Origin: Parcubacteria bacterium C7867-006
GTDB lineage: Bacteria; Patescibacteriota; Minisyncoccia; Phycocordibacterales; DATDWN01
Reading direction: 5' to 3'
Length of the DNA stretch: 64,000 nt
Assembly (NCBI GenBank): GCA_001189155.1
Contig: LFCP01000004.1
Location: 133,618 to 197,617 of the forward strand
Part shown: piece by piece, positions 4,399-63,862 of the stretch
Layout of the letters: every line of letters begins with the position of its first letter
How positions within the stretch are numbered: position 1 is the first letter of the stretch
Notes under the pieces: generated by a model
What the model saw: only the letters and a program-made list of their open reading frames with translations
Database searches by the model: none
Told to the model about the DNA's origin: nothing
Program-made: the position numbers and the translations under genes

Positions 4399-5085
4399 AT
4401 GAAGCTGGTTATAACTGATCATCTAAAGCAACTAGAAGAAAAAAGGACTTCTATCCCTGAAGATGTTTTTGATGTCACTAGGTTTTCTTTAGAAGAACTA
4501 CTGAGCACATTTGAGTCGATGGATACTTTGATTAAGAAAACTGACTACGAAGGTTGCATTAAGTTATCTAGGTCCATACTCGAAAATTCTGTAAACCTTA
4601 GATATATCTACAAAGAGGATACCGAAAAACGTGCTAAAAACTTTAAATTGAAATCAGTAAAGGAACTCTCAAGAAAGTTTGATTCTTTGGAAGAACGTAC
4701 ACCTGAGGCAAAAGAGATGAATGACTACTTTCAGGAGCTTCTTAAGGATTACACGCCTGAGAAAAATATACGTGAAAAATTCAAAGCCGTTAATTCTGAC
4801 GCTACATACATAAGATCATATAGGCGACTTTCGGAATTCATTCACCCTGCATATCGCCCAAAGAAAATAGATTTTAATGAAAACAGACCGTATGTTCTGG
4901 AAATGAAAAGAACTGTTAGATCAGATACATGCATTGTGGCTCTAATGGCTCTAGAAGTGGTTTGTCTTAAATATGACTTGGATGGAGGAATCGTTATGGT
5001 TGATGAACCGGGCTACATAGGAAAGGTATTTTTTGCCACAAACCCAAAGAAAGCATCGGAGGATGTAAAAGACCTTAAATTCTAG
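4399..5085 (+). CDS. Hypothetical helical protein
   Basis: The ORF track starts at GTG 4360. ATG 4399 (MKLVITD) is the more conservative start. No family recognised. Confidence 0.45.
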   Translation: MKLVITDHLKQLEEKRTSIPEDVFDVTRFSLEELLSTFESMDTLIKKTDYEGCIKLSRSILENSVNLRYIYKEDTEKRAKNFKLKSVKELSRKFDSLEERTPEAKEMNDYFQELLKDYTPEKNIREKFKAVNSDATYIRSYRRLSEFIHPAYRPKKIDFNENRPYVLEMKRTVRSDTCIVALMALEVVCLKYDLDGGIVMVDEPGYIGKVFFATNPKKASEDVKDLKF

Positions 5086-6247: not shown

Positions 6248-6730
6248 ATGCTCCCAATCCCCCTCACAGAAAAATATCTCGAGGCAGCAGTCAAAATGGT
6301 GGATGAAGTTTTTCCTCAAGACCTTGATGCAATCTGGAACCCAGAGAAATCTCTACCACTCAGTCTGCGACCTCAAAGCGAATTGAAGCAAGATGTGTTT
6401 GTTGACTATTGGATTGTACTTAACGACAATGATGAAATTATTGGAGTAACCGGTATGTACAGACTCAAAGAAGATCCGGAAGATGTTGTTTGGTTAGGTT
6501 GGTACTGCATTCGAGCAGACCAGAGAGGCAGAGGACTTGGACGAGAACTGTTGAACTGGACGATCGACAAAGCAAAAGAGAGAGGATTCAAGAAAATGAA
6601 ACTATACACGTCTACAGACCCAAACGAAGCGGCAGCACAAATACTATACGACAAACTTGATTTCAAAATAATTGGAGAAGATGAGGGTGACGGCATTCAT
6701 AAGACATTATATCGACAGAAGTTGTTATAA
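6248..6730 (+). CDS. GNAT family N-acetyltransferase
   Basis: Acetyl-CoA binding motif QRGRGLGRELL, 160 aa. Confidence 0.8.
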   Translation: MLPIPLTEKYLEAAVKMVDEVFPQDLDAIWNPEKSLPLSLRPQSELKQDVFVDYWIVLNDNDEIIGVTGMYRLKEDPEDVVWLGWYCIRADQRGRGLGRELLNWTIDKAKERGFKKMKLYTSTDPNEAAAQILYDKLDFKIIGEDEGDGIHKTLYRQKLL

Positions 6731-6753
6731 TTAAATTAGCCATGCCCTCCCCT

Positions 6754-6787
6754 AAAAAACGATAGGCCCGTCCGAAGACGGGCCTAT
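6754..6787 (-). terminator. GC-rich hairpin ATAGGCCCGTC-CGAA-GACGGGCCTAT with a T-run on the minus strand
   Basis: 11-bp perfect stem. The minus-strand reading is followed by TTTTTT. It sits 18 nt after the stop of ORF 6805-7188. Confidence 0.75.
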
Positions 6788-6804
6788 TTAGTGCCGACTA
6801 ACTG

Positions 6805-7188
6805 CTACGTGAGAAGGCGCAAGAGCTTCCTCAAACCATCGCGAAACCTCCTGCGAGTCATCCGGTCGACCGAGGTGAGTTCCTCGGGAAGTATCGTTCC
6901 GCTCACCCTCGACGAAAACGAAAAACCATGAATCCCCAGGAACCGTTCAACAGCAATGATCACTGAACGACGACACGAGCCAAGGAGTGGGTAGACCTCG
7001 ATGATCATCTTCACCTCATCCTTGGTCAGACCCTTTGCGACTCGGTAGGGACTGAAGAACATGTGAAGCACTCCAGCCTCCTTCTTGGAGAGCCGATAGC
7101 GCTTCCTGTAGCGATCCAGAACACCGTCTTGCGCGTTCCGGAGTCTTGCTTCCGAAAATTTCTTCAACTTGATCACTCGCTCCTCCAT
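6805..7188 (-). CDS. GC-rich ORFan (second gene of a two-gene cassette)
   Basis: 127 aa. Its ATG lies 1 nt after the TAG of the upstream ORF (translational coupling). The composition is far more G+C-rich than the flanks. No family recognised. Confidence 0.55.
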   Translation of the reverse strand: MEERVIKLKKFSEARLRNAQDGVLDRYRKRYRLSKKEAGVLHMFFSPYRVAKGLTKDEVKMIIEVYPLLGSCRRSVIIAVERFLGIHGFSFSSRVSGTILPEELTSVDRMTRRRFRDGLRKLLRLLT

Positions 7189-7189
7189 T

Positions 7190-7540
7190 CTAGCTCTGAA
7201 TCTGCCCGACTTCAGCAGCCATGGCCTCCTCGTGTTTCCTCATCTCATCGGCTGCTGCTCGGAAGAACACCTTCAGGCCATCAGGATCCTTCTCCTCGCG
7301 AATCTCATCAGCAACCCAGGAGAGATCGCTCGACGAAAGCCCGAGATCCGGCAGAGCAGTCTTTCCGCTCTTCAGGATTTCTCTAGCTTTCTCGAAACGT
7401 TCCCTTCTCGCATGTAATTCACGACGAGCCAGCCTGAGACCTCCGGGAAGGAACTCGTTCAGGTAGGTGCGCACGGCCTTGCCCACACACATGTGAGCCA
7501 CTCCGCGAAGCAACTCATCTGTTAGTTGGTTGTCGCTCAT
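7190..7540 (-). CDS. GC-rich ORFan (first gene of a two-gene cassette)
   Basis: 116 aa. A G-rich SD-like CCGGGGG lies 7 nt upstream of the ATG, with an AT-rich TTGATT-N17-ATAGTT promoter-like sequence further upstream. Line 7201-7260 is 36/60 G+C. Confidence 0.55.
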   Translation of the reverse strand: MSDNQLTDELLRGVAHMCVGKAVRTYLNEFLPGGLRLARRELHARRERFEKAREILKSGKTALPDLGLSSSDLSWVADEIREEKDPDGLKVFFRAAADEMRKHEEAMAAEVGQIQS

Positions 7541-7639
7541 TTGGTACCCCCGGACACAACTATATAATTATCAAAACATAAATCAAGTATTAATTTAACC
7601 TTGATTTCAAATCACTCTGAATAAGTTATAATACCTCCT

Positions 7640-11603: not shown

Positions 11604-11642
11604 TGTACTAGAAGAACATTGAAACCTTTCACAGGAGAGACG

Positions 11643-12653
11643 ATGTCTACGACTGAAGGCCTAGAGGCCCCGCTCGTCACGATACTCGTCCCCTGCTATC
11701 AGTACGGACGGTATCTACGCAATTGTCTGGAAGGAATTTTCGCCCAGACAATCATCGACCAAATATCGGTTGAAATCATCGTCATCAACGATGCATCAAC
11801 CGACAACACTGACGCTGTTATGCGTGAGTTCACGGACCCGCGTATTCACTACATCCGCCACGACAGAAACCGTGGACTCTGCTACACACTGTCAGAAGGA
11901 CTCACCCTCGCAAGAGGTAAGTACTTTACTCGGATTGACGCGGACGACAGATGGAAACCTCACTTTCTGGAAGTAACACTTCCTGAGCTTGAGAGATACC
12001 CTGATGTTGCTCTCGTCTTCGGTGATGTTGCCCATGTTGATGAACAAGGAAACATCATCAACGAGGAAAGTACAATCGCTCGCTCACTTGAGGTTCACGG
12101 CGATCGTGATTTCAAGGGAGACAGATTTCTTTCACAAGTCGGCGAATGCACAATCGGCACCGCTGGTGTGATAGGAAGAACCGAAGCTTGGCGTAAGGGC
12201 CTACCTTTCCCCAAATGCTTTACTTGGGAGTCCCCGTCTGACTGGTGGCTGAACATCATGGCCATCAGAGATGCAGACGTGTACTACAAGAAGGGTATTC
12301 TTGGGGAATACCGCATGCACAGTGCGAGTATGACCCACCAACAAGGTAGTGTTGATGCGGTCGATATTGAACAGACCACCATCGGCGCTATCAATGAAGC
12401 GTTTAGCGGGGTAAATCTGAAAAGAGAACACCGCCTTGCGCGACGCATGATCTACGCCAACGCATGGACCACCCTCGGGAATATCAATTTCGAAAAAAAC
12501 CGAGGTAAAGATTCGAGGAGGTGCTACGCCAACGCAGTGCTCTGGCGACCGGACTATGTTTTAAGAAAGTCCATCGCTCGACACTTCCTGTCGAGTCTCC
12601 TGCCTCGGAAACTGTACGAGAAAATAAAGAAAGGGGTGAAGAAAATGTTCTGA
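11643..12653 (+). CDS. Family 2 glycosyltransferase (GC-rich cassette)
   Basis: Motifs are ILVPCYQ.., NDASTDNT and RIDADD. The start is set at ATG 11643 after AGGAG. Line 11701-11760 is 30/60 G+C. Confidence 0.8.
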   Translation: MSTTEGLEAPLVTILVPCYQYGRYLRNCLEGIFAQTIIDQISVEIIVINDASTDNTDAVMREFTDPRIHYIRHDRNRGLCYTLSEGLTLARGKYFTRIDADDRWKPHFLEVTLPELERYPDVALVFGDVAHVDEQGNIINEESTIARSLEVHGDRDFKGDRFLSQVGECTIGTAGVIGRTEAWRKGLPFPKCFTWESPSDWWLNIMAIRDADVYYKKGILGEYRMHSASMTHQQGSVDAVDIEQTTIGAINEAFSGVNLKREHRLARRMIYANAWTTLGNINFEKNRGKDSRRCYANAVLWRPDYVLRKSIARHFLSSLLPRKLYEKIKKGVKKMF

Positions 12654-12685
12654 GCCGACCAACGCTAACGCGAAGGTCGGCTTTT
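12654..12685 (+). terminator. GCCGACC-N14-GGTCGGC followed by TTTT
   Basis: The hairpin starts directly after the stop TGA at 12651-12653. Confidence 0.7.
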
Positions 12686-27956: not shown

Positions 27957-27988
27957 AAAAACAACCTCATAAAGAGGTTGTTTTTATT
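27957..27988 (+). terminator. AAAAACAACCTC-ATAAA-GAGGTTGTTTTT hairpin after murA
   Basis: 12-bp stem plus a T-run. Confidence 0.75.
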
Positions 27989-28109
27989 TGGTGCCGGAGG
28001 AGGGACTCGAGTCTTACAGACTCAGTACTCCAATTGGATATTTTTTCAAAATATCTCAATCGGGTTTCGAGTCCTCACGAAAGTCAAAACATGACTTTCT
28101 CTCCGGCAT
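27989..28109 (-). ncRNA. tRNA-Leu-linked tRNA-like element, copy Z (complete: 5' acceptor strand, H1, split T-arm P1, P2, P3, 3' acceptor strand and CCA)
   Basis: It starts with GCCGGAG, identical to the tRNA-Leu(CAA) acceptor, and ends with TCGAGTCCCTCCTCCGGCACCA; 18 nt of that end are identical to the tRNA 3' end. It does not fold as a cloverleaf and has no D or anticodon arm. It is homologous to copies X and Y, with compensatory stem changes. Confidence 0.4.
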
Positions 28110-29827: not shown

Positions 29828-29929
29828 ATGCTCGAGATCCTTGGTAAATCAGTTCTCGCTCTGGTAGCGTTCTGGCCATTCTGGGTTACTCCACTGGCGA
29901 TAGTCTTCGCCTGCAGGCGAACTCAGTAG
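29828..29929 (+). CDS. GC-rich 33-aa hydrophobic peptide (MLEILGKSVLALVAFWPFWVTPLAIVFACRRTQ)
   Basis: AAGGAGG lies 7 nt before the ATG. One TM-length hydrophobic stretch has a basic C-terminus. The GC hairpin GCCCCGTG..CACGGGGC follows at about 29949-29975. Confidence 0.4.
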   Translation: MLEILGKSVLALVAFWPFWVTPLAIVFACRRTQ

Positions 29930-30021
29930 AACGACTCCACAGTTGTATGCCCCGTGACCTACCTAGGCACGGGGCACCGTTTTGCCTAAAGGTAAAAAAT
30001 CCTGTAGGATTGAACAAATAA

Positions 30022-30363: not shown

Positions 30364-30398
30364 AAAAAGCCGTCCGAGTAAAAGTAACCTCGGACAGG
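30364..30398 (-). terminator. CCGTCCGAG-N10-CTCGGAC(A)GG hairpin with a T-run on the minus strand
   Basis: Located 22 nt after the stop of ORF 30420-30626. Confidence 0.6.
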
Positions 30399-30419
30399 CC
30401 TTTCACTCTTGGACAGACT

Positions 30420-30626
30420 TCAGAATTCGAAGATTGGACGCGGGATGAGGATCTGCTCTGTTCCAGCGACCCTCATAGAGATGTGCTTTTCACCACCACA
30501 GTGTCGAAAGACGACAACACCGCGAGTGTTGTCTGGGTCGTTCTGCACATAAACGACAGTGCAGTTGTTGACCTTGTCACCAACTTGAAGCGAGCTCCAC
30601 TGATCGCTGGACATCTCGTTAGACAT
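30420..30626 (-). CDS. GC-rich ORFan cassette
   Basis: The start is set at ATG 30626 (MSNEMSSDQW) with GGAGG 5 nt upstream. The promoter is TTGACT-N17-TAACAT. 68 aa, no family recognised. Confidence 0.5.
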   Translation of the reverse strand: MSNEMSSDQWSSLQVGDKVNNCTVVYVQNDPDNTRGVVVFRHCGGEKHISMRVAGTEQILIPRPIFEF

Positions 30627-30710
30627 CGCGGCCTCCAAAATTGTTCCAACTATTATGTTAGTTCTAAAAAAGTTACTAGTCAACAAAAATCCCCTTGCGG
30701 GGAATCTTTG

Positions 30711-38654: not shown

Positions 38655-38775
38655 GAGTGGGAATCGAACAGATTTCCGGTTTACAAATTCAATAGAATTT
38701 GTCGGAAATTTGCGTTTTTAATTTTATTGAGTGGCGACGAAATAAAATTAAAAAAGATTACCCCACTCTGGGCAC
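38655..38775 (+). repeat. Split copy of the tRNA-Leu(TAA) T-arm and 3' end (element W): GAGTGGGAATCGAA-[two hairpins]-GATTACCCCACTCTGGGCAC
   Basis: Its ends reproduce GTGGG TTCGATT CCCAC TCTGGGCA of the adjacent tRNA. The interior holds the hairpins GATTTCCGG..CCGGAAATT-like and TTTTTAATTTTATT/AATAAAATTAAAAA. Confidence 0.5.
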
Positions 38776-38811
38776 AATAAAACTCCGTAAGGAGTTTTAT
38801 TGTGCCCAGAG
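38766..38811. repeat. 21-bp perfect inverted repeat CTCTGGGCACAATAAAACTCC-GTAA-GGAGTTTTATTGTGCCCAGAG
   Basis: It joins the 3' acceptor-like end of W, a terminator core, and the 5' acceptor-like start of X. Confidence 0.85.
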
Positions 38812-38929
38812 AGTAAAGCTATGTTATAATTTTACGTTTGGAATCGAAGCCCGATTGAGATTTTTTATGATTTTAAGAAACAAAAAATCCAATTAGGGTA
38901 CTGATCCTGTAAGGATCGAATACCCAAAC
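38802..38929 (+). ncRNA. tRNA-Leu-linked tRNA-like element, copy X (lacks a 3' acceptor strand)
   Basis: GCCCAGAG start, H1 GTAAA..TTTAC, P1 GTTTGG/CCAAAC, TCGAAGCC, P2 GATTTTTT/AAAAAATC, GTACTGA, and P3 GATCC-TGTAA-GGATC (38903-38917). Confidence 0.4.
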
Positions 38930-38933
38930 TTTG

Positions 38934-39006
38934 TGCACCCACCAGGGATCGAACCTGGGACCTTATCCTTAAGAGGGATCTGCTCTACCAGCTGAGCTAT
39001 AGGTGC
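38934..39006 (-). tRNA. tRNA-Lys (anticodon CTT)
   Basis: Acceptor GCACCTA/TGGGTGC (one G-U pair), anticodon loop CTCTTAA and T-loop TTCGATC. Confidence 0.85.
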
Positions 39007-39084: not shown

Positions 39085-39165
39085 GGGCAAGTGGCGGAAT
39101 TGGTATACGCGCTAGTCTTAGGAACTAGTTCCTCACGGATTGGGAGTTCGAGTCTCCCCTTGCCC
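39085..39165 (+). tRNA. tRNA-Leu (anticodon TAG)
   Basis: Acceptor GGGCAAG/CTTGCCC and anticodon loop CTTAGGA. A terminator AAACACC-GAAA-GGTGTTT follows. Confidence 0.9.
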
Positions 39166-39199
39166 ACAAACAACAAACACCGAAAGGTGTTTTTGTTTT

Positions 39200-39328
39200 G
39201 GGACAAGGAGAAAAGTCTGGGAGACTTTTCGTGGAGACTCGAAGCCTGTTTGAGATATTTTGGGAGTTATGAAATTACGAACAAAAATATCCAAACATGG
39301 GTACTGATCCTGTAAGGATCGAGTCTCT
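39200..39328 (+). ncRNA. tRNA-Leu-linked tRNA-like element, copy Y
   Basis: GGGACAAGG start, H1 AAAAGTC-TGGGA-GACTTTT, P1 GGAGAC/GTCTC, TCGAAGCC, P2 GATATTTT/AAAATATC, GTACTGA, and P3 GATCC-TGTAA-GGATC (39306-39320). Confidence 0.4.
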
Positions 39329-39375
39329 AATGAAAATTTTGAGTCGCGGACGAGTCTCCTAAAAATGGAACTCAT

Positions 39376-39444
39376 GTACAGAAACTGTAAGTTTCGAGAT
39401 TCTCCCCTTGCTAATTATTCCTGACCGAGTCTCCCCTTACCCCC
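39376..39444 (+). repeat. Partial second element (P3 GAAAC-TGTAA-GTTTC plus a tRNA-3'-end-like CGAGATTCTCCCCTTGCTA) and a third tRNA-3'-end-like copy (CCGAGTCTCCCCTTACCCC)
   Basis: Compare with the tRNA-Leu(TAG) 3' end TCGAGTCTCCCCTTGCCCA. Confidence 0.55.
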
Positions 39445-39448
39445 CCAC

Positions 39449-39477
39449 TTGACAGATACCACATAATGTATTACTGT
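39449..39477 (+). promoter_or_regulatory. TTGACA-N17-TACTGT promoter-like sequence for the GC-rich ORF 39495
   Basis: It starts 5 nt after the last tRNA-3'-end-like copy. Confidence 0.4.
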
Positions 39478-39494
39478 ACAACGCAGGAGCACCT

Positions 39495-39707
39495 ATGACA
39501 CACAACGAGATTGTCACTCTGATGAGGAGCAGTCGCTCTCCAGAGGAGTGGAAAAGCAATGAGGAGAGAGTGAAAGCTCACTTCTCTGGAAGTCTACCCT
39601 CTTTCTGGTACGGACTGATCGTTCAGTCCGAGGTGGCCAAGAAAACAAAAGCTTCATGGCCAAAACCACGACCCACACAACCCAAACGGCCGAGCCTGTG
39701 CCGCTGA
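39495..39707 (+). CDS. GC-rich ORFan cassette
   Basis: 70 aa. AGGAG lies 6 nt before the ATG, and a GC hairpin plus T-run lies after the stop. Confidence 0.5.
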   Translation: MTHNEIVTLMRSSRSPEEWKSNEERVKAHFSGSLPSFWYGLIVQSEVAKKTKASWPKPRPTQPKRPSLCR

Positions 39708-39805
39708 CACACCGAGCCGCCGAGTTCCGAGAGGAACCCGGCGCTTTCTTATTTTTTTGAATAAACAAAAACCACTTGTAAAAGTGGTTTTTGTTTATTC
39801 AACTA

Positions 39806-42505: not shown

Positions 42506-43318
42506 TTATTTCAATAAATTAACTTCTGATTTCATATGATTTTCTGATTCAGAAACTATCTTTTCCATAACAGAAACTACTTCGAGAGGATGTTTCCCTA
42601 TTGCAGTTTCTTCTGAAAGCATAACAGCATCAGCACCTTGTGTTATAGCGAACGATACATCTGTAACTTCAGCCCGAGTTGGCTCAATGTTTTCTGTCAT
42701 ACTCAAAAGCATCTGTGTCGCCACTATAACAGGCTTACTAACTAGTTTACATTTTTTTATTATTTCAGATTCAATAAAAGGTATTTCTTCAATCCTAAAC
42801 TCATTTCCTAAATCACCTCTAGCTATCATGATGGCATCAGAGACTTTTATTATTTCATCAATATTATCTACAGCACTTTTTCTTTCTATTTTTGATACAA
42901 CTCTTTGTTCGCCTCCACAGCTTTTTATAAAATCTTTACAAACAACAACATCATTTGCAGAACCCACAAAAGAGAGAGCAATAAAATCAATATTTTTATC
43001 AATCGAAAATTTTATTATTTCTTTATCATTATCAGTTATGGCGGAGTCAAAGTTTTTATCATAAGTATGAGAGTTTCCGTTTTGGACACGAGGACCAGGC
43101 AAATCAGCCATTATTAAAATTTTTCTATTTAAATTTTCTTCAGTTTCTCTAATAACATTTATAACTCTATTTTTCTCATCAAAATCTCCCCAAGAAAAAT
43201 TGAGTCTTGCAATATCCAAGCCAGAAGTGACCATTGATTTGAATATTTCTGGATCTTCAGAAGAACCGTTAATAGTAGCTATAATTTGAGCCCGAGAATT
43301 CATCTTTTTATTATACAA
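42506..43318 (-). CDS. pyk: Pyruvate kinase, A-domain (barrel) only
   Basis: LNFSWG, KIERKSAV.., MIARGDLG, and ATQMLLSM..PTRAEVTDV. At 270 aa there is no room for the usual B-lid and C-terminal domains. Confidence 0.7.
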   Translation of the reverse strand: MYNKKMNSRAQIIATINGSSEDPEIFKSMVTSGLDIARLNFSWGDFDEKNRVINVIRETEENLNRKILIMADLPGPRVQNGNSHTYDKNFDSAITDNDKEIIKFSIDKNIDFIALSFVGSANDVVVCKDFIKSCGGEQRVVSKIERKSAVDNIDEIIKVSDAIMIARGDLGNEFRIEEIPFIESEIIKKCKLVSKPVIVATQMLLSMTENIEPTRAEVTDVSFAITQGADAVMLSEETAIGKHPLEVVSVMEKIVSESENHMKSEVNLLK

Positions 43319-43402
43319 CAGTAAGAACTTAAAGCTATGTAAAAGTAATAAAAAATATAAAAAATATCCTTGTTTTTGGCTGTTTTTTGTTGTATAAAAA
43401 AC

Positions 43403-43431
43403 TTGACTTTTCTATTTTTATGTGATAGAAT
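43403..43431 (+). promoter_or_regulatory. TTGACT-N17-TGaTAGAAT promoter for the GC-rich two-gene module
   Basis: The -35 is at 43403-43408 and the -10 at 43426-43431. A ~65-nt leader follows, with AAAGGA before ATG 43503. Confidence 0.6.
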
Positions 43432-43502
43432 TATAAGCAGATGAGGATAGGCATCCTGCCGACCTCTCAGAACATTGACATCTGCATGAAAGGAAAAAGA
43501 AA

Positions 43503-44834
43503 ATGTCTGGACTAACGATGCTGTCGCTCGTCTTGACGGCACTGTTTCTCCTCTTCGCATTCTACCAGTCGAGGCCGAGCAAAACAGCCAAACCTGAAGA
43601 AGGACAAGAGAAGAAGTCGTCAAACGAACGACACAACCTTTGGTATCACCTGGGGTTCGTCGATGACACACCGAACCTGATTCGTCAGGTCGTCGCTGGA
43701 AGCGCAAAAAGCGGCCGGCCGATCAGGTACTTTGGGAACCTGCACGACGGGGTTATTGATGAGGCCACTGGCATCATTACATCCAACCCTAACCCACCCC
43801 TCCTTTCGGAGGGTTGGTTCCTGAATTTGATCAGGAAACACTTCGGCAAACGCTGGTGTCGCATTCCGATCATCCAGCATGTGAAGCCTTTGACGATTGA
43901 CCGGGTGGTCAGCAAGGACACCAAGTCAACTGTCAACGAACTCTCCGATGAACTTGACGCCTCAACAGTCGTCAAGGAAGGTCTCTACCGACTGATTCTT
44001 CGCCCAACCCTTCACAAGGATGTTGACGCGAAGAACAACATCCGGTTTAGCGTAATCAGTTACGCTGTTCTGGAAGTGTTCGACGCCAAACCGGCGTTCA
44101 ACATCTACCCGGACAGCTACTTGATCACTGTCAGCAAACTGATCTCTGCTTATCTTTCGAAGAATACCTTCAAACTTTCGTACGATGAGTACAAAGAGCG
44201 AGGGAACTCCTTCGAAAAAGAGCAGATCGATGAGTTGAACGGCGTGCTTCTCAGTCTGGGAATTCGGTGCAAGGAACTTCGTATGGGCGACCCTGAACTC
44301 AACAAGAGTGTTCAGGAAAGCCTTGAAAAAGAAGCCAAGGCTGAACAAGAAGCCAAGGCTCAGAAACGAAAGGGTCAGGGCCAAAAAGACTACGATACTC
44401 TCGTGTCCGAAGGCCAGTCCCAAGCAATCAGGAATCTGGCTGCCGCCAAGGCATCCAGGTTCTCTGAACTCATCAACCTCTACAAGAACGAAGGCTTGAC
44501 TGGGTCTGAAGCAGTGGACAGAGCAAATGCAATGATCTCAGCCGAGTTCAACGCAGATGCTGTTCGACAGCTTCAAGGAACCTACGTCGCTTCAGGTAAC
44601 GGCGTTCAACTTGCCGTTATGGAGAGAAGACCAAGTGCAACTACAAGTTCGACTACCGAAGCTGCAGCTCAAGCAGCGCCTACTGGCAGTCAGTCAGTGG
44701 GCCAGGCCTCGGCTCAACCAGCTCAACCTGTGGCTCAAAAGCCTATGGCTCCGAGCACAACCCAGGCTGGTCAGACTCCGCATCAGAATCAAGGCAGGGG
44801 TCACAAAGACAAGGGCCGCCGCAACAAGAAATAA
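43503..44834 (+). CDS. GC-rich membrane-anchored protein with an SPFH/band-7-like core and a low-complexity Ala/Gln/Pro/Thr tail
   Basis: N-terminal TM helix. LGIRCKELRMGDPELNKSVQESLEKEAKAEQEAKAQ and downstream GQSQAIRNLAAAKA resemble SPFH C-terminal blocks. Line 43561-43620 is 30/60 G+C. Confidence 0.45.
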   Translation: MSGLTMLSLVLTALFLLFAFYQSRPSKTAKPEEGQEKKSSNERHNLWYHLGFVDDTPNLIRQVVAGSAKSGRPIRYFGNLHDGVIDEATGIITSNPNPPLLSEGWFLNLIRKHFGKRWCRIPIIQHVKPLTIDRVVSKDTKSTVNELSDELDASTVVKEGLYRLILRPTLHKDVDAKNNIRFSVISYAVLEVFDAKPAFNIYPDSYLITVSKLISAYLSKNTFKLSYDEYKERGNSFEKEQIDELNGVLLSLGIRCKELRMGDPELNKSVQESLEKEAKAEQEAKAQKRKGQGQKDYDTLVSEGQSQAIRNLAAAKASRFSELINLYKNEGLTGSEAVDRANAMISAEFNADAVRQLQGTYVASGNGVQLAVMERRPSATTSSTTEAAAQAAPTGSQSVGQASAQPAQPVAQKPMAPSTTQAGQTPHQNQGRGHKDKGRRNKK

Positions 44835-44949
44835 ACGGTCCAACACCATCGTTGCGGTCATTGCGATCATCACGCTGATTATCGCGAAGATCGCAACTAG
44901 CGTCTTCCACTTTCTGTCGGAGATTGGTCTTTGGTTCAAAGCGGAAGCT

Positions 44950-45825
44950 ATGAACTACTATCAAACTCCCAGTGGTGGACTGATTAGCAAGGTAATACTG
45001 GTGGTTCTCCCGGTTGCATCATTTGCGCTTGCGTACGTGATGTATCGGAGGAACCATCCAACTTCTCCGAGGTTCAAATATCGTAGTAGCCGAAGTTCGA
45101 AAGACTTCGCCGCTGCTGTGATGATGCCGTTTGGCCTGGCCATCGGCGTCGGAATCCTCTGGGGAGTTGTGTACTTCCTGGCTTGGGGGCCTGGAATTCT
45201 GCACTACTTCTCTTTCCCTATCTGGGGAAAAGCGGAAGCTAGGATGAGCACTCCAACCAACAGTGGCTTCGTCGACAAAAACGAAGTCCACCGTCGGACG
45301 GGAGAGTTCTGGTATTCCAACTTGCCACCGACCGAGGCCAAGGAGATGCTCGACATCGCCACGGAAGAGTCACATTTCCAGCAATTCAACACTGATGGGA
45401 GTGTCTTCACCGGCGTGGACGACCCAGCCGACACGGGCGTGATGCAAATCAACGTCCGTGAGAACCAGAAAGACCTGATAGCGTGGGGGCTCAACGTCAA
45501 CACTCTCGAAGGAAATCTGGAAGCGGCCAAAAGGCTTCGTCAGAAATACGGCACGAAGCCTTGGCAACGGACGGTGGATAAAATCAAAAACCGTCCGTCG
45601 CAGATAATCACCATCAAGGTGCCAAAGGAAGGTCGCAGTGAAAGGTTTACCCCCGACGGCAGATTCTGCCAGGGTCAAACCGATCTTCCAGTCACCGTAT
45701 GGGACGACAAAGGTAGGAGCCACCCAATGACTCCGACCAGCGTTCCAACTGTTCCGTCGTTGTGGTATGAGTACTCCACTCCAAGTGGAGGCTCACTCCC
45801 AACGATCACCATTTCATGCAGGTAA
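44950..45825 (+). CDS. GC-rich membrane-anchored lytic transglycosylase (SLT-domain) protein
   Basis: Catalytic block TEESHFQQFN and GVMQINV. The start is set at the first ATG after the upstream stop. The ORF-track start 44557 would overlap the upstream gene by 278 nt. Confidence 0.6.
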   Translation: MNYYQTPSGGLISKVILVVLPVASFALAYVMYRRNHPTSPRFKYRSSRSSKDFAAAVMMPFGLAIGVGILWGVVYFLAWGPGILHYFSFPIWGKAEARMSTPTNSGFVDKNEVHRRTGEFWYSNLPPTEAKEMLDIATEESHFQQFNTDGSVFTGVDDPADTGVMQINVRENQKDLIAWGLNVNTLEGNLEAAKRLRQKYGTKPWQRTVDKIKNRPSQIITIKVPKEGRSERFTPDGRFCQGQTDLPVTVWDDKGRSHPMTPTSVPTVPSLWYEYSTPSGGSLPTITISCR

Positions 45826-45831
45826 CGCAAA

Positions 45832-45866
45832 GCGCGGAGACCCTTCGGGGCCCTCCGCGCTTTTTT
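45832..45866 (+). terminator. GCGCGGAG-N13-CTCCGCGC followed by TTTTTT
   Basis: Located 6 nt after the stop TAA at 45823-45825. Confidence 0.8.
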
Positions 45867-45886
45867 CATATCTGAATTTTGTGTTG

Positions 45887-46195
45887 TTATAGTTTTAGAA
45901 AATTCGTTGCACCTGAAGAATTTATATCAGAAGATGTTATACCGAATGTTCCCATAACAAAACGTATAATCCCAAAAACAGAAAACATAATAACCATACC
46001 TGCGATCCCCCACATTATTGCACTTCTTGACTCTCCTCTAGTTTTATCAGCAGAATTTAAATCTTGATTTAGGAAATTGAATACTCCGTAAACAAAATAC
46101 AAAAACGATACCGCAAACATTAGTAACAAAAGTGGATTGATAATCAAATCAATTACTTTGTTTAGGAAAGGTACAATAGATAATGATGAGGACAT
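45887..46195 (-). CDS. TrbC/VirB2-like (type IV secretion pilin-like) small membrane protein, paralog 6
   Basis: Two hydrophobic helices flank a polar loop with the shared ..MWGI.. motif. No signal peptide. Confidence 0.45.
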   Translation of the reverse strand: MSSSLSIVPFLNKVIDLIINPLLLLMFAVSFLYFVYGVFNFLNQDLNSADKTRGESRSAIMWGIAGMVIMFSVFGIIRFVMGTFGITSSDINSSGATNFLKL

Positions 46196-47056: not shown

Positions 47057-47512
47057 TTATGGTGCCGGAACCCCACTTGGTAAATTAAAAGTACTTGTAT
47101 TCTGACCACTGTTTGTTGAAGTTGGTATAAGTGGAATAGTTGATGAATCCCCTATCTCCAAATCTCGAGCTATCAATCCTATGATAGCTCTTACAGAAAT
47201 AAGAACAAACAGCACAACAACCCCCCATATCATATAATTTTTACCCTTCTGCACATCTGCTGGACTACCAGAGTTTAGAATAAACCTCGATAGACCCCAG
47301 AAAAATGCTAAGAAACTTAAAGCAAAAAGTATCGGAATAATAAGAGAGATAACATTTATTATATGGTAGATACTACAACCAAAATCAACACCTATTAAAG
47401 AAAAACTACTAGTGTCGCAAGCTGTTACTCCAGAAGTAAACTGAGAAAAAACAAAAGTTGGAAACATTAGCACTATCAGAATGAGAAACTTTAAATGTTT
47501 TTTTGTATTCAT
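47057..47512 (-). CDS. TrbC/VirB2-like pilin-like protein, paralog 3
   Basis: The start is set at ATG 47512 (MNTKKHLKF). The core is FFWGLSRFILNSGSPADVQKGKNYMIWGVV. Confidence 0.5.
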   Translation of the reverse strand: MNTKKHLKFLILIVLMFPTFVFSQFTSGVTACDTSSFSLIGVDFGCSIYHIINVISLIIPILFALSFLAFFWGLSRFILNSGSPADVQKGKNYMIWGVVVLFVLISVRAIIGLIARDLEIGDSSTIPLIPTSTNSGQNTSTFNLPSGVPAP

Positions 47513-47520
47513 ATTTTTAT

Positions 47521-47925
47521 CTAGTTCATAAGAGCTCTGACTGTATTTTCGACAACAACTGAAATAGCAGCCGCTCCCAGAAGTATACCTGCACCAATAA
47601 GTGACCATAAAAGGTTTTTCTTTGCGTCATCAATTTTCTTTGGGTTACCTTGAGCAAGAACAAACTGAAAACCTGCCCAGACAATCCAAACCACAACAGC
47701 AACAGCAGCTATTGGCATAACTATATTTGACAATATAACTCTAATCAAAGCCATAAGGTCATTACCTCCATTAAAAGGATTATCGATTTTCGCACCTATC
47801 TGTGTTGAACCTGGAGTTGGTGATTGTGTTGTTGATGGAGCTGGCATTGTTTGAGCCAACAAAATTACCGGGGCAAGCATCACAAGAAAACCCATAACAG
47901 AAAATATTTTTTTTATTTTATTCAT
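47521..47925 (-). CDS. TrbC/VirB2-like pilin-like protein, paralog 2
   Basis: Signal peptide, then the core VWAGFQFVLAQGNPKKIDDAKKNLLWSLI. Confidence 0.5.
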   Translation of the reverse strand: MNKIKKIFSVMGFLVMLAPVILLAQTMPAPSTTQSPTPGSTQIGAKIDNPFNGGNDLMALIRVILSNIVMPIAAVAVVVWIVWAGFQFVLAQGNPKKIDDAKKNLLWSLIGAGILLGAAAISVVVENTVRALMN

Positions 47926-47934
47926 AAATTTTTA

Positions 47935-48399
47935 TTAACCTAATGGTACCAAATTTTTAACATTGTTATTCAATAAACTATTTGTAATCAGTGTAACTAT
48001 GAGCCAAGCTGCTAACATAAAAAATATTCCCCAAGCAACCTTAACAAGCCTACCGTTTGCCCTTGCTCTAGCCCCCGGATTACCTCCAGATGTCATATAC
48101 TCAAAACCAACATATGCAATTATTACAACAGTAAAAGCTAGGGCAAGAGGAATAGCTATTCCAAAAAATTTCTTAACCGCATATATCAAATCATTAAAAC
48201 CACAATCCCCATAGATAGTGGTGCCGTTAGGACCAGGCCTACTACATTCATATGTTATACCAGTACTCTGACCACCTCCAGTTGTGTCTGTACTTCCACC
48301 TGGAGGAACCATTACTTGTGAATATGAAAAAACAGGTAGAGAAATAAATAAAGCTATCAAAAAGAATTTTAATATTTCTGATTTTATTTTATTTTTCAT
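47935..48399 (-). CDS. TrbC/VirB2-like pilin-like protein, paralog 1 (most divergent)
   Basis: Signal peptide followed by the same helix-GNP-loop-helix layout. Confidence 0.4.
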   Translation of the reverse strand: MKNKIKSEILKFFLIALFISLPVFSYSQVMVPPGGSTDTTGGGQSTGITYECSRPGPNGTTIYGDCGFNDLIYAVKKFFGIAIPLALAFTVVIIAYVGFEYMTSGGNPGARARANGRLVKVAWGIFFMLAAWLIVTLITNSLLNNNVKNLVPLG

Positions 48400-55199: not shown

Positions 55200-55223
55200 T
55201 TAAAAAATATTCAGATAGCAGAT

Positions 55224-55251
55224 AGGGCGGCCCGTGAGGACCGCCCTTTTT
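55224..55251 (+). terminator. AGGGCGG-N10-CCGCCCT followed by TTTT
   Basis: Lies after the rpsA stop. Confidence 0.7.
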
Positions 55252-55270
55252 GTGTTAATCGAGTGAGGAA

Positions 55271-55591
55271 TCAATCGTTTTCGCGTTCGAACTCGTCGTC
55301 CTTATGATCCTTCCGACGCTTTTTCTCGACCGACAGTTTCTTTCGCTCGAGGATCTGGACGAGTTGTTCCGCCATCTCCTTGTGGTGTGATGGCAAACGA
55401 CTCGGCCAACTCTCAAGCCTAGAATGTACGAGAGCGATGAGCTCGTCGTGACCGGTCCGAATATCGAGCCTCATCATGAACCTCATGAAGTGGAATTCGA
55501 TACCCGTATCGATAGAAGCCGTTCGCATCTCCTTGATGAACGCCTCCGAAATCGAAAGCTCCTCGTCATCCTCAGACACTCGCTGCGCCAT
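55271..55591 (-). CDS. GC-rich ORFan cassette (acidic/basic helical protein)
   Basis: The start is set at ATG 55591 (MAQRVSEDDE) with AAGGAG 6 nt upstream. The promoter is TTGACT-N16-TACTCT. 106 aa. Confidence 0.5.
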   Translation of the reverse strand: MAQRVSEDDEELSISEAFIKEMRTASIDTGIEFHFMRFMMRLDIRTGHDELIALVHSRLESWPSRLPSHHKEMAEQLVQILERKKLSVEKKRRKDHKDDEFEREND

Positions 55592-55642
55592 ATGTACTCC
55601 TTCAGTCTGCCAGAGTAACACTTTAATCGATTTAGTCAATTT

Positions 55643-62680: not shown

Positions 62681-63862
62681 ATGAAAATTTTAAGCATCGA
62701 AACCTCCTGTGATGAGACAGCAGTGAGTATAGTTGAAGCTGAAGGAGGACTAGACTCCCCCTCATTTAAAGTCCTGGGAAATGCCTTATTCTCACAGATA
62801 GCCATACACAAAGAATATGGTGGGGTCTATCCTATGCTAGCGAAACGAGAGCACGCAAAAAACCTAGCACCACTTTTAGAAAAAAGTCTAAAAGATGCTG
62901 GTTTACTAAAAAACCAACAAAACAACCATACTGAAGAATTTTGGAAAGACGTAGAAAATATTTTATCTAGAGAAGAAGGTTTATTCCCTGCATTAAAAGA
63001 AACATTCAAAGATATCGATAAGCCAAACATAGATGCAATATCTGTTACTTCTGGTCCCGGACTTGAACCAGCTTTGTGGGTTGGTATTAGTTTTGCGACA
63101 GCATTAGGAAAGCTTTGGAACATACCTGTTATTGGTGTAAACCATATGGAAGGGCATATTGCTTCAGTTTTAATAGAAAATATAGACGAAAGAAAAGTTG
63201 AATTCCCTGCTCTAGCAGTTTTGATTTCAGGTGGTCATACAGAAATAGTCAAAATAAACTCTTGGGGTAAATATAAAGTTATTGGACAAACAGTAGATGA
63301 TGCTGTTGGCGAGGCCTTTGATAAAGTAGCTAGACTTCTAGGATTACCCTACCCGGGAGGACCAGAAATCTCTCGTTTAGCAGAAAAAGCAAGAGAAGAA
63401 AATCTTCCTCACACAGCAAAACTGCCTAGACCAATGCTACATTCAAACAACCTAAACTTTTCATTCTCAGGCCTAAAAACTGCAGTGCTTTATTACATTA
63501 GAGACCATTTTTCTGGTAGTTTTGAAAATATGAACGAAGAAAATAAATCTGATCTAGCACGTGAATTTGAAGATGCCGTTATAGATGTTTTGAGAGAAAA
63601 AACAAATGAAGCGCTAAAAGAAAATAATGTAAAAACTCTTATAGTTGGAGGTGGAGTAATAGCTAATAAAAAATTAAAAGATGTATTCATTGATTTCGAA
63701 AACAAATACTCTGGGCTTGTAGTAAAAATTCCAACGAGAGGCCTAGCAACAGATAACTCACTAATGATAGCCGTAGCAGCATATATAAACACATGCTTAT
63801 ATCCAGAAATATTAACTAATACAAAAAAAATAATAGCAAAAGGTAATTTAGGATTTGAATAA
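62681..63862 (+). CDS. tsaD: tRNA N6-adenosine threonylcarbamoyltransferase
   Basis: ILSIETSCDET, VNHMEGH and GGV.AN. Starts 4 nt after tRNA-Val. Confidence 0.9.
   Translation: MKILSIETSCDETAVSIVEAEGGLDSPSFKVLGNALFSQIAIHKEYGGVYPMLAKREHAKNLAPLLEKSLKDAGLLKNQQNNHTEEFWKDVENILSREEGLFPALKETFKDIDKPNIDAISVTSGPGLEPALWVGISFATALGKLWNIPVIGVNHMEGHIASVLIENIDERKVEFPALAVLISGGHTEIVKINSWGKYKVIGQTVDDAVGEAFDKVARLLGLPYPGGPEISRLAEKAREENLPHTAKLPRPMLHSNNLNFSFSGLKTAVLYYIRDHFSGSFENMNEENKSDLAREFEDAVIDVLREKTNEALKENNVKTLIVGGGVIANKKLKDVFIDFENKYSGLVVKIPTRGLATDNSLMIAVAAYINTCLYPEILTNTKKIIAKGNLGFE

Follow-up and report, generated by a model that had tools for sequence, protein, structure and literature searches.

What has accumulated behind the tRNA-Leu(TAG) gene of Parcubacteria bacterium C7867-006? 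The gene lies in a 64,000-nt stretch of contig LFCP01000004.1, which we analyzed as a whole and call the window. A preliminary description of the locus recorded serial copies of the tRNA 3' end followed by a small GC-rich open reading frame (ORF), and attributed them to repeated integrase-mediated insertions at the tRNA. We report that the flank carries a short, structured, non-coding element, named type A here, followed by three relics, one of type A, one of a second family (type B) and one that we assign to neither. We are confident of this descriptive part, that is, of the family, its anatomy, its covariation, its gain and loss and its relics. As for the origin of the flank, we lean towards a pile-up of small, non-coding, non-autonomous, tRNA-anchored elements copied 3'-end-first, with the GC-rich cassette as a separate matter.

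The window has a G+C content of 37% and nine tRNA genes according to ARAGORN, and it encodes housekeeping proteins (a short IF-2, RbfA, ClpB, gyrase A, FtsZ, FtsA, SerRS and topoisomerase I). Its nearest sequence relatives are genome bins of Patescibacteria (the candidate phyla radiation), and in an Rfam scan of the window only tRNAs reached the gathering score. We searched a collection of species-representative genomes with a 25-nt degenerate pattern of the type-A core, in which two stem pairs were left free. The pattern was present at at least 118 genome loci, compared with about 0.5 matches expected by chance over 1.2e12 positions by our own estimate. In 86 of the 123 pattern matches the core lay 75-200 nt behind a tRNA on the same strand. 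Every named record with the core belongs to Patescibacteria, the lineages being Paceibacterota/Parcubacteria, Taylor-, Lloyd-, Kaiser-, Zambryski-, Ryan- and Nomurabacteria, Minisyncoccia and bins labelled Saccharibacteria. The host tRNAs are of 16 amino-acid identities (Arg, Ser, Leu, Gly, His, Val, Pro, Lys, Glu, Ile, Tyr, Cys, Asn, Gln, Phe and Asp), so the family is not Leu-specific, and the name of tRNA-Leu elements given earlier is too narrow.

We also used a covariance model, R1, with a seed of 38 aligned copies and a six-helix structure. The full structure was set by hand, because RNAalifold on a rough MAFFT alignment gave only the helices P3 and P4. R1 was run with filters off on the whole window, where its full copies are the elements X, Y and Z only (104, 98 and 92 bits), in addition to a partial hairpin at 39376. 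X was part of the seed; Y and Z were outside it, and Y was recovered where the preliminary description had placed it (Table 1). The alignment likewise shows X, Y and Z to be copies of one element. When R1 was run on the window together with 99 loci from related genomes (758 kb; loci of related genomes carry L-numbers below), it found 131 copies at E <1e-3, of which 86 directly follow a tRNA and eight follow another copy.

Type A is about 135 nt long and is oriented with the tRNA strand. It opens with a spacer that usually holds a perfect, A/T-flanked hairpin. Then come the complement of the acceptor 3' strand, a hairpin termed hp1 (GAAAGnnn-YGGGR-nnnCTTTCGT), and the complement of the T-stem 3' strand and the whole T loop, so that the antisense arm is the Watson-Crick reverse complement of positions 66-73 and 54-65 of the neighbouring tRNA, split by hp1. 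P3 follows (GCCCGATTGAG...CCAATYGGGG, in which an A is bulged and the tip varies, ..GAG..CGAA..), and after it GTAC and P4 (TGAnnC-TGTAA-GnnTCG). At the 3' end the tRNA is copied directly, from about position 55 to 73; the copy mostly stops there, at the tRNA 3' end, and at times continues into the trailer or a full tandem unit. TCGA stands at both core junctions. The RNA of the intact copy X folds at -53.5 kcal/mol (z -9.6). In Z the direct copy is degenerate and continues into an inverted tRNA-Lys gene.

The arms follow the tRNA next to which they lie. A match of at least 11/12 between antisense T arm and tRNA was found in 58 of 84 cognate pairs and in 70 of 1188 non-cognate pairs; for the direct copy, at least 13/14 was matched in 41 of 84 cognate and in none of 1188 non-cognate pairs. 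Even the T-loop variant TTCAAAT is mirrored, as ATTTGAA, in the arms of L038 and L101. G-U pairs and mismatches in the tRNA tell its two strands apart: 15 times the arm was the reverse complement of the 3' strand, and once a copy of the 5' strand. Given that the arm tracks the 3' strand, the element is not a decayed duplicate tRNA, and we rejected a pseudo-tRNA on this ground. The arm also fits the upstream tRNA better than its own 3' copy in 73 of 74 units, and it is intact where the 3' copy has decayed. Judged by these sequence matches, the T-stem and acceptor arms are copied from the neighbouring tRNA.

The predicted structure is supported by covariation. In alignment A4 (131 copies), which was fitted to the model and therefore gives somewhat inflated pairing figures, 88.5% of the paired cells can pair, compared with 36-46% for slid partners. 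Double-sided changes numbered 1416, against 469 in shuffles, and none of 500 shuffles reached the observed value. The unfitted alignment A3 showed the same trend (79% versus 31-54%). By helix, pairing was 94.5% in hp1, 91-97% in P3 and 97% in P4, and only 67% in P1 and about 80% in P2. Scores were 80-131 bits on the sense strand and no more than 23 bits on the antisense strand, and the recurrent G-U pairs fit the sense strand only. These two results assign the structure to the sense strand of the tRNA, whether as RNA or single-stranded DNA. Type A thus shows what is expected of a structured element, namely compensatory, pair-keeping changes on one strand only.

Type A is apparently uncatalogued. 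Rfam 15 gave no family match to it, and no match on the element around X was better than E 0.1; full-text literature searches returned no description of it, and the core pattern was absent from viral contigs. A phage origin was rejected, as BLAST of the region against a phage collection matched only the tRNAs and the core is absent from viral contigs. We also rejected a known ribozyme, riboswitch or tRNA-like family, given the lack of an Rfam match and a core that by eye is unlike the hammerhead consensus, and a link to group I introns, since the one relevant paper on Patescibacteria tRNAs concerns introns at position 35/36, which are unrelated.

Some copies depart from the common plan. An extra conserved module, roughly WAARYGTACTCAYRGTCC, lies between TCGA and the tRNA copy in L018, L029, L030, L051, L101 and L114, and P4 and the junction are variant (GTACTGCGNCTGTAAGNCGGGAAAG) in L016 and L093, so the family has subtypes. 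The tRNA-His copies (L007, L048, L068, L075 and L095) have a contiguous antisense arm, GGGCGGCTACCGGG, and then a different hairpin, and this form is kept across several candidate phyla. The heptamer GCGAAGC, which as DNA forms an unusually stable mini-hairpin, or near variants of it, occurs in spacers without a terminator and in P3 tips of many copies (for example L006, L047, L069 and L115). Copies for which no upstream tRNA was called (L017 at about 2050-2300; L029, L082 and L095) do follow a tRNA-like 3' end; an interruption of those tRNAs, for example a group I intron, is the probable reason why ARAGORN missed them. Other short structured segments are nested within type-A copies at L015 (6110-6290) and L043 (70-310), so that tRNA flanks hold several kinds of small elements.

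How does the tRNA-Leu(TAG) flank itself read in these terms? Its parts are listed in Table 1, and between 39168 and 39958 there is no ORF longer than 84 aa. Positions 54-73 of the tRNA (TTCGAGTCTCCCCTTGCCCA) are the template for all arms and repeats of the flank. Y is nearly complete; its direct tRNA copy is broken off at TCGAGTCTC (39319-39327). It lacks the strand that would close P1, and Y is kept in this state in four genomes. As had been proposed, 39319-39327 and 39351-39359 are alternative pairing partners of GGAGACTCG (39233-39241); the tRNA itself is a third. The copy at 39351-39359, cited earlier as a pairing partner only, is preceded by a type-B 3' end, and together they make up relic 1. 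The same kind of 3' end, GA(C/G)TCGCGGAAG and then tRNA T-arm sequence, stands after tRNAs in L045 and, in a looser form, in L057 and L079.

Table 1. Features of the tRNA-Leu(TAG) locus and the other type-A and type-B copies of the window (window coordinates)
Feature	Position	Strand	Remarks
tRNA-Leu(TAG), anchor	39085-39167	+	ARAGORN; Rfam tRNA 59.6 bits; 83/83 identical in L039 and L045
Spacer with terminator-like hairpin	39168-39199; stem-loop 39175-39192	+	apex of the long palindrome formed by tRNA 3' end and antisense arm
Element Y, type-A copy	39200-39327	+	R1 98.4 bits, E 5e-26 over 39200-39342; fold z -4.1
Y, 5' half	39200-39208; 39210-39230; 39233-39243	+	antisense acceptor arm; hp1; antisense T arm
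Y, 3' half	39245-39300; 39301-39304; 39305-39321	+	P3; GTAC; P4
Relic 1	39328-39359	+	type-B 3' end (TAATGAAAATTTTGAGTCGCGGA) 39328-39350; tRNA copy CGAGTCTCC 39351-39359
Relic 2	39376-39413	+	5'-truncated type-A copy: GTAC, P4 hairpin GAAAC-TGTAA-GTTTC, GA
Relic 3	39414-39448	+	short fragment ATTATTCCTGAC; direct tRNA copy CGAGTCTCCCCTTACCC (39426-39442); CCCCAC
GC-rich cassette	39449-39756	+	TTGACA 39449-39454; ribosome-binding site AGGAG 39485-39489; ORF 39495-39707 (70 aa)
Cassette terminator-like hairpin and T run	39719-39758	+	two-base overlap with the bidirectional terminator
Perfect bidirectional terminator, 21-nt arms	39757-39802	.	inverted repeat; homology with relatives is back about 30 bases beyond
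Element X, intact type A behind tRNA-Leu(CAA)	27987-28109	-	R1 103.9 bits (in seed); all helices including P1
Terminator hairpin and element Z, type A of tRNA-Leu(TAA)	38776-38941	+	R1 91.5 bits for 38803-38941
Type-B copy behind tRNA-Leu(TAA), A/T-rich	38655-38775	+	inverted and direct repeat; homologous copy in L045

The partial second unit of the preliminary description, relic 2, also proved real. R1 aligned to 39376-39396 (15 bits, E 0.056), and the full-length direct tRNA copy GATTCTCCCCTTGCTA (39398-39413) stands in register behind the hairpin. The stem is GAAAC/GTTTC where Y has GATCC/GGATC, around an identical CTGTAAG loop; because the stems differ as pairs around the same loop, the two P4 stems covary. 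The tRNA-end match at 39397-39413 (13/17, 76%) is within chance when taken alone, as we estimate about 1.6 such matches per window, and it is convincing beside the P4 hairpin. Fragments like relic 2, with the 3' part only, begin at the same point in L012, L039, L079 and L083. In relic 3 the tRNA end is matched at 16/17 (39426-39442), compared with 0.04 matches at three or fewer mismatches in shuffled sequence and about 4e-4 at one or none by our estimate. The third copy described earlier is therefore genuine, and its motif, ATTATTCCTG(T/A)C-CGAGTCTCC, is found in L039 as well. The claim that the remnants exceed chance thus holds for the 16/17 copy and for the series, which is non-random, and it does not hold for the 13/17 copy by itself. 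The repeats are also not plain att-type scars, since each is the 3' end of a copy or fragment of a structured element of about 135 nt with an antisense 5' arm.

Comparison of the locus across related genomes, which had been set beforehand as a test, showed the downstream slot to vary as expected of repeated insertion. The outcome thus favours the preliminary description, with an unoccupied site in L039, other cargo in L045 and L164 and one more insertion in L164. In the relatives the tRNA-Leu(TAG) gene is 100% identical and Y about 90% identical, and the differences within hp1 and P3 of Y are paired changes, so that the stems stay base-paired. After GGATCGA(G/A)TCTC, which is present in all relatives, the sequences diverge completely, and homology returns only at a small minus-strand ORF. 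In the window the interval is taken up by relics (about 120 nt) and then the GC-rich cassette (300 nt). In L039 there are relics of about 100 nt, among them a further 3'-only type-A fragment, and a cassette is missing. L045 and L164 hold a different cassette. The slot downstream of tRNA-Leu(TAG) is hypervariable, to judge from these aligned sequences. In L164 (1-420), an A/T-rich insertion of about 370 nt with a 97-aa membrane-like ORF lies between the tRNA-Leu(TAG) 3' end and the hairpin that precedes Y. In L039 the spacer hairpin has a wholly different sequence, yet it is palindromic again and abuts both arms. Synteny via the downstream peptidoglycan-binding protein gave 44 relatives in a metagenome scan, none of which retains the tRNA-Leu locus.

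The site behind tRNA-Leu(TAA) changes in the same manner. It is empty in L039, with a 27-nt spacer to tRNA-Lys; it has type B only in L045 and type A only in L064; and in the window it has type B, then an old tRNA end, a terminator and Z as in L064, and then the inverted tRNA-Lys gene. Z accordingly has a counterpart in L064 and none in L045 and L039. The tRNA-Lys(CTT) gene of the window (38933-39006, minus strand), whose 3' end is abutted by Z, is inverted relative to L039 and L045; in these it stands between tRNA-Leu(TAA) and tRNA-Leu(TAG), in the same orientation as both, with a type-B element of its own behind it. L039 also encodes an HNH-endonuclease-like ORF (4750-5060; ...LDHINGNRHDNRIENLRVLCPNCH...) directly upstream of tRNA-Leu(TAA), whose downstream site is empty.

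Tandem type-A units occur in L006, L065 and L108. We rejected the idea that the tRNA-proximal copy of an array is the youngest, as the R1 bit scores showed no consistent order. The 3'-only fragments (in the window, L012, L039, L079 and L083) all begin close to GGGTAC, at the 3' base of P3, with a tRNA copy flanking each; no true 5'-only type-A fragment was found among the compared loci. The identity of hp1 and P3 was 0.686 between copies at different tRNAs of one genome (n=23) and 0.572 between copies at the same tRNA in different genomes (n=91). Presence and absence at orthologous sites, multiple copies per genome and decayed copies were all observed, as is usual for mobile elements.

Type B has a different core with the same flank logic. 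It lies behind tRNA-Lys(CTT) in L039 and L045 and behind tRNA-Leu(TAA) in L045, and its core reads GGAGCGGTTTACAGT-hairpin-ACTGTCGCGAG ... AATTTTGACTCGCGGAAG, then ATTC.... Only in the L045 tRNA-Leu(TAA) copy and in the window copy is this flank logic clear, with the antisense T arm preceding the core and the direct tRNA copy following it; the 3' end is matched more loosely in L057 and L079. In the window copy the antisense T arm is GAGTGGGAATCGAA (38655-38668), which with one base more is a perfect 15-nt complement of the tRNA, and the direct copy is ATTACCCCACTCTGGGCAC (38757-38775). An association of type B with CCA at tRNA-Leu(TAA) was dropped, as it is anecdotal only (two genomes versus two).

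Is the GC-rich cassette part of the same system? The preliminary description had reported a TTGACA promoter and an ORF joined to the tRNA-Leu elements. TTGACA, the ribosome-binding site and the ORF are present; the promoter was not called by a consensus scan, and its -10 element is weak. Among 5.8e9 proteins the only match of the 70-aa ORF was itself. The cassette ORF of L045 has one partial relative and is unrelated to that of the window, and neither has a Pfam or PHROG match. In the window ORF the G+C content is flat across codon positions (0.48, 0.52 and 0.56) and the RNA folds better than shuffles (z -3.9), which leaves translation of the ORF unproven. The cassette lies outside the last tRNA-end repeat, that is, the repeat is on its left side only; a 14/20 tRNA-end-like stretch behind the cassette of L045, also seen in L164, is too weak to use. 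With no far-side repeat, and with unrelated orphans as the cassettes of the relatives, the link of the cassette to the elements is positional, in a hypervariable slot, and the joining that had been supposed is not supported. Nor is this clearly the one place where a GC-rich cassette meets a tRNA: at 30364-30690 (minus strand) another such cassette directly follows the tRNA-Tyr terminator, with TTGACT, a GGAGG ribosome-binding site, an ORF of about 70 aa (MSNEMSSDQW...) and its own terminator. Beside it there is neither a type-A or type-B element nor a copy of a tRNA end, which again makes the link between cassette and relics positional only.

What process could build such a flank? In the account that we favour, the sense-strand transcript would fold into a mimic of the top half of the tRNA, and new copies would be made 3'-end-first by a polymerase or reverse transcriptase acting in trans. 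Priming would take place where the tRNA-like 3' end of the element anneals to the T loop and T stem of a tRNA gene or of an older copy, and the target would thereby be duplicated. Stalling at the stable P3 hairpin could leave relics that begin at GGGTAC. The relics, truncated at the 5' side, intact at the 3' side and each with a tRNA copy behind it, fit such copying. The antisense arm might stay matched through templated correction in the long palindrome, or through selection for pairing; the apex of the palindrome, wholly different between the window and L039 and yet perfect in both, suggests templated correction or re-synthesis. The cassette would be separate cargo that landed in the same permissive slot. 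A Pfam scan of the window ORFs of at least 150 aa, except 62681-63862, gave no integrase, transposase or reverse transcriptase, and when 1205 neighbouring ORFs were clustered, no family occurred at more than 17 of the 118 loci and no autonomous version was found. Given that no mobility enzyme was found in the scanned window ORFs and no neighbour family recurs more widely, the element appears to be non-autonomous. This specific copying mechanism is put forward tentatively.

Several observations weigh against this account. Since no mobility enzyme was identified, we infer the copying step entirely. The antisense arm is interrupted by hp1, so simple fold-back copying cannot make it. CCA is encoded in 8 of 87 tRNAs that precede type A, compared with 18 of 97, and as it is not enriched there is no signature of copying from the complementary DNA of a mature tRNA. 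After a jump to a new tRNA the old arm would remain, yet most arms match locally, and therefore an extra correction step is needed. The paired changes that keep the stems of Y and the distinct tRNA-His subtype are as compatible with a host function as with selfish spread. The best-preserved copy of an array is not consistently the one nearest the tRNA, and 3'-only fragments are few (about five). The higher similarity within genomes comes from 23 pairs only and could reflect gene conversion. In addition, the loci were selected via the core pattern, so that the frequencies are biased.

These points bring up the possibility that type A is a family of host-beneficial RNA genes, encoding a tRNA-specific top-half mimic or an RNA antisense to the tRNA 3' half for tRNA processing, decoy protection or regulation, which would be produced together with its tRNA or beside it, with the relics as decayed duplicates. 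The strong covariation and sense-strand specificity speak for this, as do the stem-preserving changes among Y copies and the conserved tRNA-His subtype. The topology is also tRNA-like, with a 7-bp acceptor-like P1, a GG-loop hairpin in the place of the D arm and a T-stem-like P2, and X folds stably; the direct copy usually ends at the 3' end of the tRNA, and the arm is matched to the tRNA even where the 3' copy has decayed. However, only a minority of tRNAs carry the element, with few among the tRNAs that were not used for locus selection, and its presence varies between close relatives. Many copies are truncated or degenerate, and Y has been kept in four genomes without the strand that closes P1. 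Selfish DNA typically shows such tandem arrays and stacked fragments; the tRNA and the element often have a terminator between them, with no promoter evident; and a second, unrelated core (type B) follows the same flank logic. On balance we regard a host RNA as rather unlikely.

A bolder variant of the mobile view is that types A and B would form a new class of self-retargeting, tRNA-anchored, non-coding elements specific to Patescibacteria, with a conserved RNA scaffold, two guide-like segments rewritten from the local tRNA, and host or helper enzymes acting in trans only. They would home to the T loop and 3' end of tRNA genes, and orphan cassettes would then perhaps be homing cargo as well. 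Insertion would thus be RNA-guided or tRNA-templated, with no protein gene dedicated to it alongside. We regard this, too, as rather unlikely.

In a further alternative, type A is a single-stranded DNA hairpin element of the REPIN/RAYT or IS200/IS605 (PATE) kind, with an HUH/Y1 enzyme in trans that cuts TCGA and with the sense strand of the tRNA gene exposed as lagging-strand template. Palindromic TCGA is indeed present at both core junctions and in every T loop; P3 and P4 are subterminal hairpins whose loops are conserved, with a bulged A; the copies keep strictly to one strand; spacers and the P3 tip share a mini-hairpin motif of the d(GCGAAGC) type; and the copies are non-coding, multiple and intergenic. 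However, no Y1/HUH gene was found in the scanned window ORFs or as a recurrent neighbour, and such elements do not duplicate or invert flanking target DNA, so the tRNA-derived arms are left unexplained. The G-U pairs do not help here, because G-T wobble cannot tell single-stranded DNA from RNA. We consider this alternative improbable.

The original proposal of serial tyrosine-integrase insertions, with the repeats as attL/attR-type scars and the ORF as surviving cargo, fares somewhat worse. Its core observation stands, in that insertion or duplication at the tRNA has been repeated: direct repeats of the tRNA 3' part stand in series, the site is empty, otherwise filled or interrupted in relatives, and tyrosine integrases habitually target the T arm and 3' end of tRNAs. 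However, no integrase was found in the scanned ORFs of the 64-kb window or as a recurrent neighbour of the copies. The 20-130 nt between the repeats are conserved non-coding element and not island DNA, antisense arms and a covarying core are foreign to att sites, and the cassette lies beyond the last repeat with no repeat on its far side. We hold this explanation to be very improbable. Chance resemblance or a low-complexity artefact, which might account for the 13/17 match (about 1.6 expected per window), can be dismissed in view of the E value of Y (5e-26), the 16/17 copy against 0.04 in shuffles, at least 118 loci against about 0.5, and the covariation controls.

How does type A relate to systems that are already known? 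With tRNA-targeted integrative islands and prophages it shares the tRNA 3' side, repeats that run from the T loop or anticodon loop to the 3' end, serial stacking and a strain-variable site; it differs in being about 135 nt long, non-coding and without an integrase, and in having a covarying core and an antisense arm, with arms matched to 16 tRNA identities. The primer-binding site of long-terminal-repeat (LTR) retroelements and retroviruses is likewise perfectly complementary to a tRNA 3' end, over about 18-20 nt, and its Watson-Crick match is perfect because it is re-copied from the tRNA. The type-A arm, however, spans the whole T loop (54-73), has no complement of CCA, is split by hp1 and lies beside the tRNA gene; its palindrome continues into the tRNA trailer, no LTR is present, and no reverse transcriptase was found in the scanned window ORFs. 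With regard to a SINE-like, target-primed retroelement, the 3'-only fragments of type A have a common start at the P3 base and a flanking tRNA copy each; no reverse transcriptase and no poly-A or CCA mark was found.

Type A also resembles tRNA mimics such as plant mitochondrial t-elements, mascRNA, viral tRNA-like structures and the tRNA domain of transfer-messenger RNA, which place an acceptor and T-stem top-half mimic beside other genes and, in known examples, serve RNase P, RNase Z and the CCA-adding enzyme as substrates. In type A, however, the T loop is replaced by a two-hairpin junction, and the 5' strand is the exact complement of the 3' strand and not a copy of the tRNA 5' half. A weak Rfam match to mascRNA-menRNA falls on the tRNA and not on the element. 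MITEs (miniature transposable elements with inverted repeats), REPINs and IS200/IS605-derived PATEs are similarly small, non-coding, hairpin-rich, multi-copy, intergenic and dependent on enzymes in trans, with decayed copies common. Unlike these, type A has no constant terminal inverted repeats, its arms vary with the adjacent tRNA, its location and orientation at the tRNA are strict, and, in place of a MITE target-site duplication, its flanking direct copy is about 19 nt of tRNA. The pairing of exon- and intron-binding sequences (EBS/IBS) in group II introns and the IS110 bridge RNA offer another parallel, an RNA scaffold with short variable segments complementary to the insertion target; type A has no intron domains, reverse transcriptase or DEDD recombinase in it or adjacent to it, and its pairing with target DNA is putative. 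The GC-rich cassettes, for their part, resemble integron cassettes as small single-ORF units that vary by strain at one site. They differ in that the GC-rich cassette has its own promoter-like site, ribosome-binding site and terminator; no integrase was found in the scanned window ORFs, and no attC-like palindrome beyond the terminator hairpin was found after the ORF. Type A shares single traits with integrase att repeats, retroelement primer-binding sites, tRNA-like processing signals and MITE/REPIN-type elements, but it does not appear to fit the definition of any of them. We place it among the small non-autonomous elements, with a real chance that it is categorically new.

Patescibacteria have tiny genomes with little non-coding DNA, yet hundreds of copies of type A are retained across many of their lineages. 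If it is mobile, it would be a compact case of target-templated or guide-like retargeting to tRNA genes, and it would account for the concentration of strain-specific orphan genes in the tRNA 3' flanks of these genomes. As a host RNA, type A would instead be a tRNA-specific partner RNA of a new kind. In either case, the element can serve as an annotation marker, by a covariance-model score above 80 bits, and accounts for many "tRNA fragment" artefacts in these genomes, and type A gives a testable handle on genome plasticity in organisms not yet cultured alone.

Elsewhere in the window there are about 14 GC-rich islands of roughly 50% G+C (for example 6713-7588, 11604-12685, 43440-45895 and 55208-55622), several of which have TTGACA-type promoters and strong ribosome-binding sites. 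Recognizable proteins are encoded in some, such as a GT2 glycosyltransferase at 11619-12653 and an SPFH protein at 43503-44834, and others are orphans. Immediately upstream of tRNA-Trp there is a small GC-rich ORF (29829-29990) that encodes a hydrophobic peptide and has a GC-rich terminator. The largest island is adjoined by a pyruvate kinase gene that is apparently split or truncated (42506-43707), in which a 270-aa ORF matches part of the barrel domain and a 135-aa ORF lies upstream. At 9-1550 there is a type I restriction R-subunit-like ORF without its N-terminal part, and two ORFs (47057-47608 and 47935-48399) resemble type IV secretion pilins.

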